A stretch of DNA of 64,000 nucleotides from Escherichia coli. Its GTDB lineage: Bacteria; Pseudomonadota; Gammaproteobacteria; Enterobacterales; Enterobacteriaceae. The notes beneath the pieces are model-generated. The model made no database searches, was not told where the DNA came from, and was given only the letters and a program-made list of their open reading frames with translations. The stretch lies in assembly GCF_003334335.1 (NCBI RefSeq), contig NZ_QOWQ01000015.1; one strand, written 5' to 3'. Positions 56,829 to 58,587 of this stretch are shown piece by piece; the first letter of the stretch is position 1, and each line of letters begins with the position of its first letter. A program made the position numbers and the translations under genes.

Positions 56829-57665
56829 ATGACCGTATTACATAGTGTGGATTTTTTTCCGTCTGGTAACGCGTCCGTGGCGATAGAACCCCGGCTCCCG
56901 CAGGCGGATTTTCCTGAACATCATCATGATTTTCATGAAATTGTGATTGTCGAACATGGCACGGGTATTCATGTGTTTAATGGGCAGCCCTATACCATCA
57001 CCGATGGCACGGTCTGTTTCGTACGCGATCATGATCGGCATCTGTATGAACATACCGATAATCTGTGTCTGACCAATGTGCTGTATCGCTCGCCGGATCG
57101 ATTTCAGTTTCTCGCCGGGCTGAATCAGTTGCTGCCACAAGAGCTGGATGGGCAGTATCCGTCTCACTGGCGCGTTAACCACAGCGTATTGCAGCAGGTG
57201 CGACAGCTGGTTGCACAGATGGAACAGCAGGAAGGGGAAAATGATTTACCCTCGACCGCCAGTCGCGAGATCTTGTTTATGCAATTACTGCTCTTGCTGT
57301 GTAAAAGCAGTTTGCAGGAGAACCTGGAAAACAGCGCATCACGTCTCAACTTGCTTCTGGCCTGGCTGGAGGACCATTTTGCCGATGAGGTGAATTGGGA
57401 TGCCGTGGCGGATCAATTTTCTCTTTCACTGCGTACGCTACATCGGCAGCTTAAGCAGCAAACGGGACTGACGCCTCAGCGATACCTGAACCGCCTGCGA
57501 CTGATGAAAGCCCGACATCTGCTACGCCACAGCGAGGCCAGCGTTACTGACATCGCCTATCGCTGTGGATTCAGCGACAGTAACCACTTTTCGACGCTTT
57601 TTCGCCGAGAGTTTAACTGGTCACCGCGTGATATTCGCCAGGGACGGGATGGCTTTCTGCAATAA
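56829..57665 (+). CDS. rhaS: AraC-family activator of rhaBAD, RhaS
   Basis: 278-aa ORF; N-terminal cupin sugar-binding domain, C-terminal dual HTH; recognised by recall. Confidence 0.96.
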
Positions 57666-57738
57666 CGCGAATCTTCTCAACGTATTTGTACGCCATATTG
57701 CGAATAATCAACTTCGTTCTCTGGCCGAGGTAGCCACG

Positions 57739-58587
57739 GTGGCGCATCAGTTAAAACTTCTCAAAGATGATTTTTTTGCCAGCGACCAGCAGGCAGTCGC
57801 TGTGGCTGACCGTTATCCGCAAGATGTCTTTGCTGAACATACACATGATTTTTGTGAGCTGGTGATTGTCTGGCGCGGTAATGGCCTGCATGTACTCAAC
57901 GATCGCCCTTATCGCATTACCCGTGGCGATCTCTTTTACATTCATGCTGACGATAAACACTCCTACGCTTCCGTTAACGATCTGGTTTTGCAGAATATTA
58001 TTTATTGCCCGGAGCGTCTGAAGCTGAATCTTGACTGGCAGGGGGCGATTCCGGGATTTAACGCCAGCGCAGGGCAACCACACTGGCGCTTAGGTAGCAT
58101 GGGGATGGCGCAGGCGCGGCAGGTTATCGGTCAGCTTGAGCATGAAAGTAGTCAGCATGTGCCGTTTGCTAACGAAATGGCTGAGTTGCTGTTCGGGCAG
58201 TTGGTGATGTTGCTGAATCGCCATCGTTACACCAGTGATTCGTTGCCGCCAACATCCAGCGAAACGTTGCTGGATAAGCTGATTACCCGGCTGGCGGCTA
58301 GCCTGAAAAGTCCCTTTGCGCTGGATAAATTTTGTGATGAGGCATCGTGCAGTGAGCGCGTTTTGCGTCAGCAATTTCGCCAGCAGACTGGAATGACCAT
58401 CAATCAATATCTGCGACAGGTCAGAGTGTGTCATGCGCAATATCTTCTCCAGCATAGCCGCCTGTTAATCAGTGATATTTCGACCGAATGTGGCTTTGAA
58501 GATAGTAACTATTTTTCGGTGGTGTTTACCCGGGAAACCGGGATGACGCCCAGCCAGTGGCGTCATCTCAATTCGCAGAAAGATTAA
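57739..58587 (+). CDS. rhaR: AraC-family activator of rhaSR, RhaR
   Basis: In-frame reading region 57565..58587; start placed at GTG 57739 (282 aa, recalled current annotation); alternative ATG at 57649 would give 312 aa and overlap the rhaS 3' end. Confidence 0.85.

Follow-up and report, generated by a model that had tools for sequence, protein, structure and literature searches.

A GTG codon as the probable translation start of Escherichia coli rhaR, and a conserved module in the spacer that precedes it

Translation of Escherichia coli rhaR very probably begins at the GTG codon at positions 57739–57741 of the 64,000-nt stretch of DNA analyzed here (the window), with GAGGT at 57727–57731 serving as its Shine–Dalgarno (SD) sequence. 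Initiation at this codon would yield an AraC-family activator of 282 aa, with a non-coding intercistronic spacer of 73 nt separating the GTG from the rhaS stop codon. From comparative evidence, we infer that the GTG is the sole or overwhelmingly predominant initiation site for ribosomes in E. coli. This start is already settled in current annotation, and the finding is an ordinary one: it agrees with the reference annotation and changes nothing for the field. The choice of start has practical consequences all the same. It fixes the RhaR N-terminus and thereby residue numbering, which in older work appears to be based on a 312-aa form; the original 1987 rhaR sequence paper and later genetic work reportedly number residues in this way. 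It also bears on how rhaSR cassettes are designed for rhamnose-inducible expression vectors and on the consistency of annotation, given that a single 90% protein cluster holds RhaR calls of 312, 288, 282, 281, and 262 aa.

Results

Two candidate starts at the rhaS–rhaR junction

According to the list of open reading frames (ORFs) and RefSeq annotation, the window carries rhaB (minus strand), rhaS, rhaR, and convergent rhaT, in an order that recurs in Salmonella, Enterobacter, and Citrobacter. The position of rhaR is thus downstream of rhaS, divergent from rhaBAD, and convergent with rhaT, with which it shares a 4-nt overlap of 3′ ends (58584–58587). On the plus strand, rhaS spans 56829–57665 (278 aa, with a TAA stop at 57663–57665), as given by the ORF list and the RefSeq annotation of 100%-identical records, and rhaR spans 57739–58587 (282 aa plus stop). 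The 73-nt spacer between them, at 57666–57738, is probably non-coding. Two candidate starts lie 90 bases apart in the same frame and lead to a common stop at 58585–58587. The upstream candidate, an ATG at 57649–57651 on the plus strand, begins 17 nt from the end of rhaS and 14 nt before its TAA, and we judge it to be non-functional as a start. The downstream candidate is the GTG at 57739, and another in-frame GTG is found at 57628. The ATG is composed of the last two bases of a rhaS Asp codon (GAT) and the first base of the Gly codon that follows (GGC). Because the E. coli spacer lacks a stop in the rhaR frame, the frame reaches back to this triplet.

The original prediction held that the ATG would give a 312-aa protein starting within the 3′ end of rhaS and the GTG a protein of 282 aa, and both coordinates and lengths are correct. 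It further described the rhaR frame as open from 57565. The frame is indeed open at that point, but it opens at 57508, after the previous in-frame stop, and 57565 is merely its first start-type codon (GTG). That a single sequence permits either start also holds, given that the SD-like elements are comparable. The AGGGA upstream of the ATG (57640–57644, plus strand) is predicted to pair with the 16S rRNA 3′ end at −7.8 kcal/mol with 4-nt spacing, and only 2% of the window's ATG triplets have a duplex of that strength. The GAGGU sequence located 8 nt before the GTG pairs at −7.2 kcal/mol. The stretch that includes AGGGA, CAGGGACGGG, is made of the conserved RhaS C-terminal codons for Gln-Gly-Arg-Asp, the AGGGA itself falling in the codons for Gln-Gly-Arg, and this G-rich stretch is conserved in other genera as RhaS coding sequence.

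The ambiguity between the two starts is no greater than expected by chance. When the 73-nt spacer was shuffled, the rhaR frame remained open in 33% of trials, and of the 45 long ORFs in the window, 40 offer a second in-frame ATG, GTG, or TTG within 40 codons of the first.

Comparison across enterobacterial loci

We compared rhaS–rhaR loci using one genome per species, plus Salmonella, Enterobacter, Citrobacter freundii, and Superficieibacter. The resulting 35 informative loci represent more than 10 genera (Escherichia, Citrobacter, Salmonella, Enterobacter, Kluyvera, Leclercia, Silvania, Buttiauxella, Cedecea, Atlantibacter, and Superficieibacter). At the codon homologous to 57739, 30 loci have GTG, four have TTG, and one has ATG, with nothing else observed; such restriction to start codons carries the signature of a translation start. 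A GAGG-type SD motif is kept across genera and lies 7–8 nt upstream of this codon nearly everywhere among the 35 loci. The predicted duplex at the GTG site averages −6.9 kcal/mol, with 27 of 35 loci at −6 or better; the corresponding values for the ATG-equivalent site are −5.4 kcal/mol and 9 of 35.

In non-Escherichia loci, with two exceptions that lack an ATG, a stop interrupts the rhaR frame 1–25 codons before the GTG-homologous codon. The triplet equivalent to 57649 is ATG in nine of the 35 loci, although outside Escherichia it is either out of frame or soon followed by a stop. An ATG-initiated rhaR frame is confined to Escherichia loci, being stopped or out of phase in 30 non-Escherichia loci and in one Escherichia lineage (locus L005), and the comparison reveals no conservation of an upstream start that would mark an N-terminally extended proteoform.

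Across the 35 loci, between 71 and 158 nt separate the rhaS stop from the rhaR start, and all three phases occur. Palindromic REP-type insertions, such as CTTATCCGGCCTAC/GTAGGCCGGATAAG in C. freundii, occupy the gap in several genera. Such palindromic insertions were seen in Salmonella, Citrobacter, some Buttiauxella, and Atlantibacter (L050:1249–1400, L052:1244–1400, L035:1347–1500, L022:1343–1500, and L025:1365–1500); those of Citrobacter and Salmonella are REP-type with CTTATCCGGCCTAC arms, and Atlantibacter carries a different GC-rich hairpin. In Atlantibacter sp. RC6 (L024) and “Citrobacter freundii M-21” (L031), the rhaR frame is open for 61–63 codons upstream of a TTG start, a further TTG lies far inside rhaS, and the spacer measures 128–134 nt and includes a GC-rich hairpin. 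We took the long open frame in these two loci as a chance occurrence. By sequence, “C. freundii M-21” groups with Atlantibacter and may be mislabeled.

Variation of the spacer within Escherichia

A divergent Escherichia lineage, L005 (labeled E. coli E69), was used to gauge constraint on the spacer. Between L005 and the window, rhaR shows 2.8% divergence at first codon positions, 3.5% at second, and 23.3% at third. In the spacer, 17.8% of sites differ, distributed 5/5/3 over the putative codon positions. The putative first and second positions thus accumulated 10 changes, compared with approximately 1.5 expected under rhaR-like constraint (Poisson P = 5e-6). The L005 spacer has additionally lost one nucleotide and carries a stop three codons ahead of the GTG. 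Coding constraint on the 30-residue extension would appear as third-position bias and indels in threes; neither was found, as judged from the distribution of changes, the single-nucleotide deletion, and the three-phase spacer lengths. In this lineage, the spacer has the evolutionary pattern of non-coding DNA.

Among six divergent E. coli strains sampled, the long rhaR frame is intact, with no stops and no frameshifts, and the ATG and open frame are also kept in Escherichia sp. MOD1. Spacer changes in the six strains comprise three that would be non-synonymous (L22F in O157:H7, A7T, and N11T) and two that would be synonymous. This polymorphism shows no sign of purifying selection, with too few strains to be decisive.

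Protein, structure, and annotation

RhaR combines an AraC-type cupin with a C-terminal double helix-turn-helix (HTH), matching Pfam PF02311/PF07883 and PF12833/PF00165 in the cluster representative and in all listed homologs. Its N-terminal domain is identical to that in PDB 5U93, and the identical E. coli protein activates the rhaSR promoter on L-rhamnose (PMC5566544, PMC3870299). The 5U93 chain begins MAHQLKLL, which corresponds to the GTG start, and 5U9E starts two residues later. Given where 5U93 begins, the RhaR N-terminal domain is complete without the extension. Alignment to the paralog RhaS leads to the same start: RhaS residue 8 aligns with RhaR residue 11 when RhaR is numbered from the GTG (residue 41 when numbered from the ATG), such that the two N-termini coincide to within three residues only if RhaR begins at the GTG. 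The 30-residue extension has no counterpart in RhaS.

RefSeq/PGAP annotation of K-12 derivatives and of diverse strains places the start at the GTG, and the MG1655 protein, NP_418342.2, whose accession version was revised, uses it as well. The earlier preference for the GTG, which drew on current annotation, is supported by RefSeq/PGAP and by MG1655, and strongly by independent comparative evidence. RhaR orthologs outside Escherichia are almost all called as 282 aa by several independent gene callers, and the 312-aa form is limited to the E. coli/Shigella cluster. The EcoGene 3.0 paper makes no mention of rhaR. Nor does the gene appear in the TRAINSPOTTER, TetRP, and ribosome-signature supplements, which hold start-site or N-terminomics data; this is expected because the operon is off without rhamnose.

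Some database entries have unusual lengths. Calls of 288 aa (P0007 and P0012, beginning MAEVAT or MVEVAT, from some E. coli and Shigella dysenteriae) start at the codon equivalent to the CTG at 57721–57723, which in those strains has presumably mutated to a start-type codon. Two E. coli entries of 397–399 aa (P0017 and P0018) have a C-terminal frameshift near residue 295, followed by approximately 100 residues antisense to rhaT, and are probably pseudogenes or assembly errors. We considered whether these odd-length entries, together with a 90%-identical 312-aa member, are real variants and rejected that reading, as they represent start-call differences or frameshifts.

A conserved module in the spacer

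Directly after the rhaS stop, the spacer contains a conserved block, CGCGA-N6-TCAAC-GTATTT (57666–57687; cross-genus consensus CGCGA-N6-TCACC-GTTTTT), and, 21 nt after it, a conserved AATAAT (57703–57708, plus strand; nATAnT) that resembles a −10 hexamer. Across loci, the hexamer takes the form (A/G)ATA(A/C)T and follows 20–22 nt on. The spacing is fixed in 32 of 34 loci, and the N6 and N21 sequences vary. Within those 32 loci, columns conserved at 94% or above number 14 of 22 in the block and 4 of 6 in the hexamer, where four columns are invariant. At 4-fold degenerate rhaS sites from the same loci, which are saturated, the mean majority-base frequency is 0.55, and none of 44 sites is conserved at 90% or above. 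As read from these alignments, the module is conserved far above neutral sites, in a column pattern that is not that of codons. Every insertion in the gap falls downstream of the AATAAT hexamer and upstream of the SD sequence.

A module of fixed geometry followed by a variable leader gives the region what we hypothesize to be a promoter-like appearance. Tentatively, the module (CGCGA-N6-TCAMC-N21-AATAAT, 57666–57708) could be an internal activator-dependent promoter or a regulator-binding site that renders rhaR expression partly independent of rhaS, for instance by supplying basal RhaR to prime the rhamnose cascade. If AATAAT were a −10 element, the GTG would be the only one of the two starts on a transcript beginning near 57715. 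A consensus scan of 57450–57850 returned no sigma-70 promoter (−35/−10 pair) and no intrinsic terminator, and the searchable literature contains no description of the module or of a rhaR promoter. The module is the only item here with some discovery value; it could bear on how the RhaS:RhaR ratio or the basal level of RhaR is set.

Two other explanations for the conservation were rejected. By eye, the module resembles the RhaR/RhaS sites of psr, rhaBAD, and rhaT (AATCGACGTTTTTT, TCGCGAA), as a relic or copy might. A spacer profile run over the 64-kb window gave the psr site an E-value of only 12 at approximately rank 18, and no match recurred at the homologous position in other loci, which leaves this reading unsupported. 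A conserved RNA structure was likewise dismissed: RNAalifold predicted 0 pairs on 19 sequences, the E. coli fold scored z = +0.41, and Rfam gave no match.

Individual E. coli strains vary within the module region. At 57667, a G>A change in strain 4314 alters the otherwise invariant G of CGCGA, and at 57680, an A>C change in RIVM_C037794 converts TCAAC to the cross-genus consensus TCACC. In strain NCTC9064 (L046:788–1560, equivalent to approximately 57700 in the window), an IS1A is inserted inside the spacer. This strain is missing rhaS and the region up to fdhD, and the ATG and most of the module are lost; rhaR remains and is annotated from the GTG.

Discussion

The main alternative to exclusive use of the GTG is dual initiation, in which the GTG form would be the principal and ancestral product, accompanied in E. 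coli and Shigella by a minor 312-aa proteoform begun at the ATG at 57649, for example through re-initiation by ribosomes finishing rhaS. The ATG lies within plausible reach of a ribosome terminating 14 nt away, its SD-like duplex is as strong as that of the GTG and rare among ATG triplets in the window, and every E. coli strain sampled, as well as Escherichia sp. MOD1, retains both the ATG and the open frame. Against this, the coding of rhaS fully accounts for the ATG and the SD-like stretch, and an open frame is expected by chance in a third of shuffled spacers. Moreover, the extension shows no coding constraint, in that three of its five changes among E. coli strains replace a residue, and the frame is no longer open in the closest divergent Escherichia lineage. 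Since the ATG lies inside a translated region, elongating ribosomes would be expected to occlude initiation there. We consider dual initiation unlikely.

Still less credible is the reading behind older annotation, that translation starts principally at the ATG and that functional RhaR is the 312-aa protein. In its favor, ATG is the commoner start codon, this ATG gives the longest ATG-begun ORF, and the 312-aa form appears in many GenBank records. The start-codon survey, SD conservation, and spacer evolution are all contrary to it, the extension is not encodable in any ortholog outside Escherichia/Shigella, and both the RhaS paralog and the crystallized RhaR domain lack it. We regard the ATG as a highly improbable principal start. 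Initiation at the GTG, preceded by a spacer that does not code for protein, is the reading that best fits the junction.

Relation to known systems

For the spacer module, the closest comparison is with class II activator-dependent promoters, such as those with CRP centered at −41.5; the CRP consensus is TGTGA-N6-TCACA. The module has two short conserved blocks separated by six variable bases and located 21 nt upstream of an nATAnT hexamer, and its dyad center would fall at −41.5, as in that class, provided that AATAAT is a −10 element, as assumed here. Agreement with the half-sites of CRP is weak, above all in E. coli (CGCGA, 3 of 5; TCACC, 4 of 5; E. coli TCAAC, 3 of 5) and falls short of the CRP consensus, and we do not claim that the module belongs to the class II CRP-type promoters.

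Relative to the older 312-aa annotation of RhaR (e.g., ABB63784.1 from Shigella dysenteriae Sd197, and many E. coli GenBank entries), the present reading retains the same frame and the same protein from residue 31 onward. The older annotation adds 30 residues encoded by the last bases of rhaS and by the spacer; these residues are without homologs in other genera and without coding constraint. RhaS, encoded immediately upstream as a tandem paralog, shares 35% identity with RhaR over 266 residues and has the same cupin plus double-HTH architecture; it differs in that rhaS has an ATG start and a stronger SD duplex (−10.3 versus −7.2 kcal/mol). The window gene itself is E. coli K-12 rhaR (b3906; NP_418342.2/WP_001336056.1, HTH-type transcriptional activator RhaR, 282 aa). 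The junction DNA is identical to that of K-12 derivatives and strain 300709, and the start, the stop, and the gene neighborhood of rhaB, rhaS, rhaR, and rhaT are alike.
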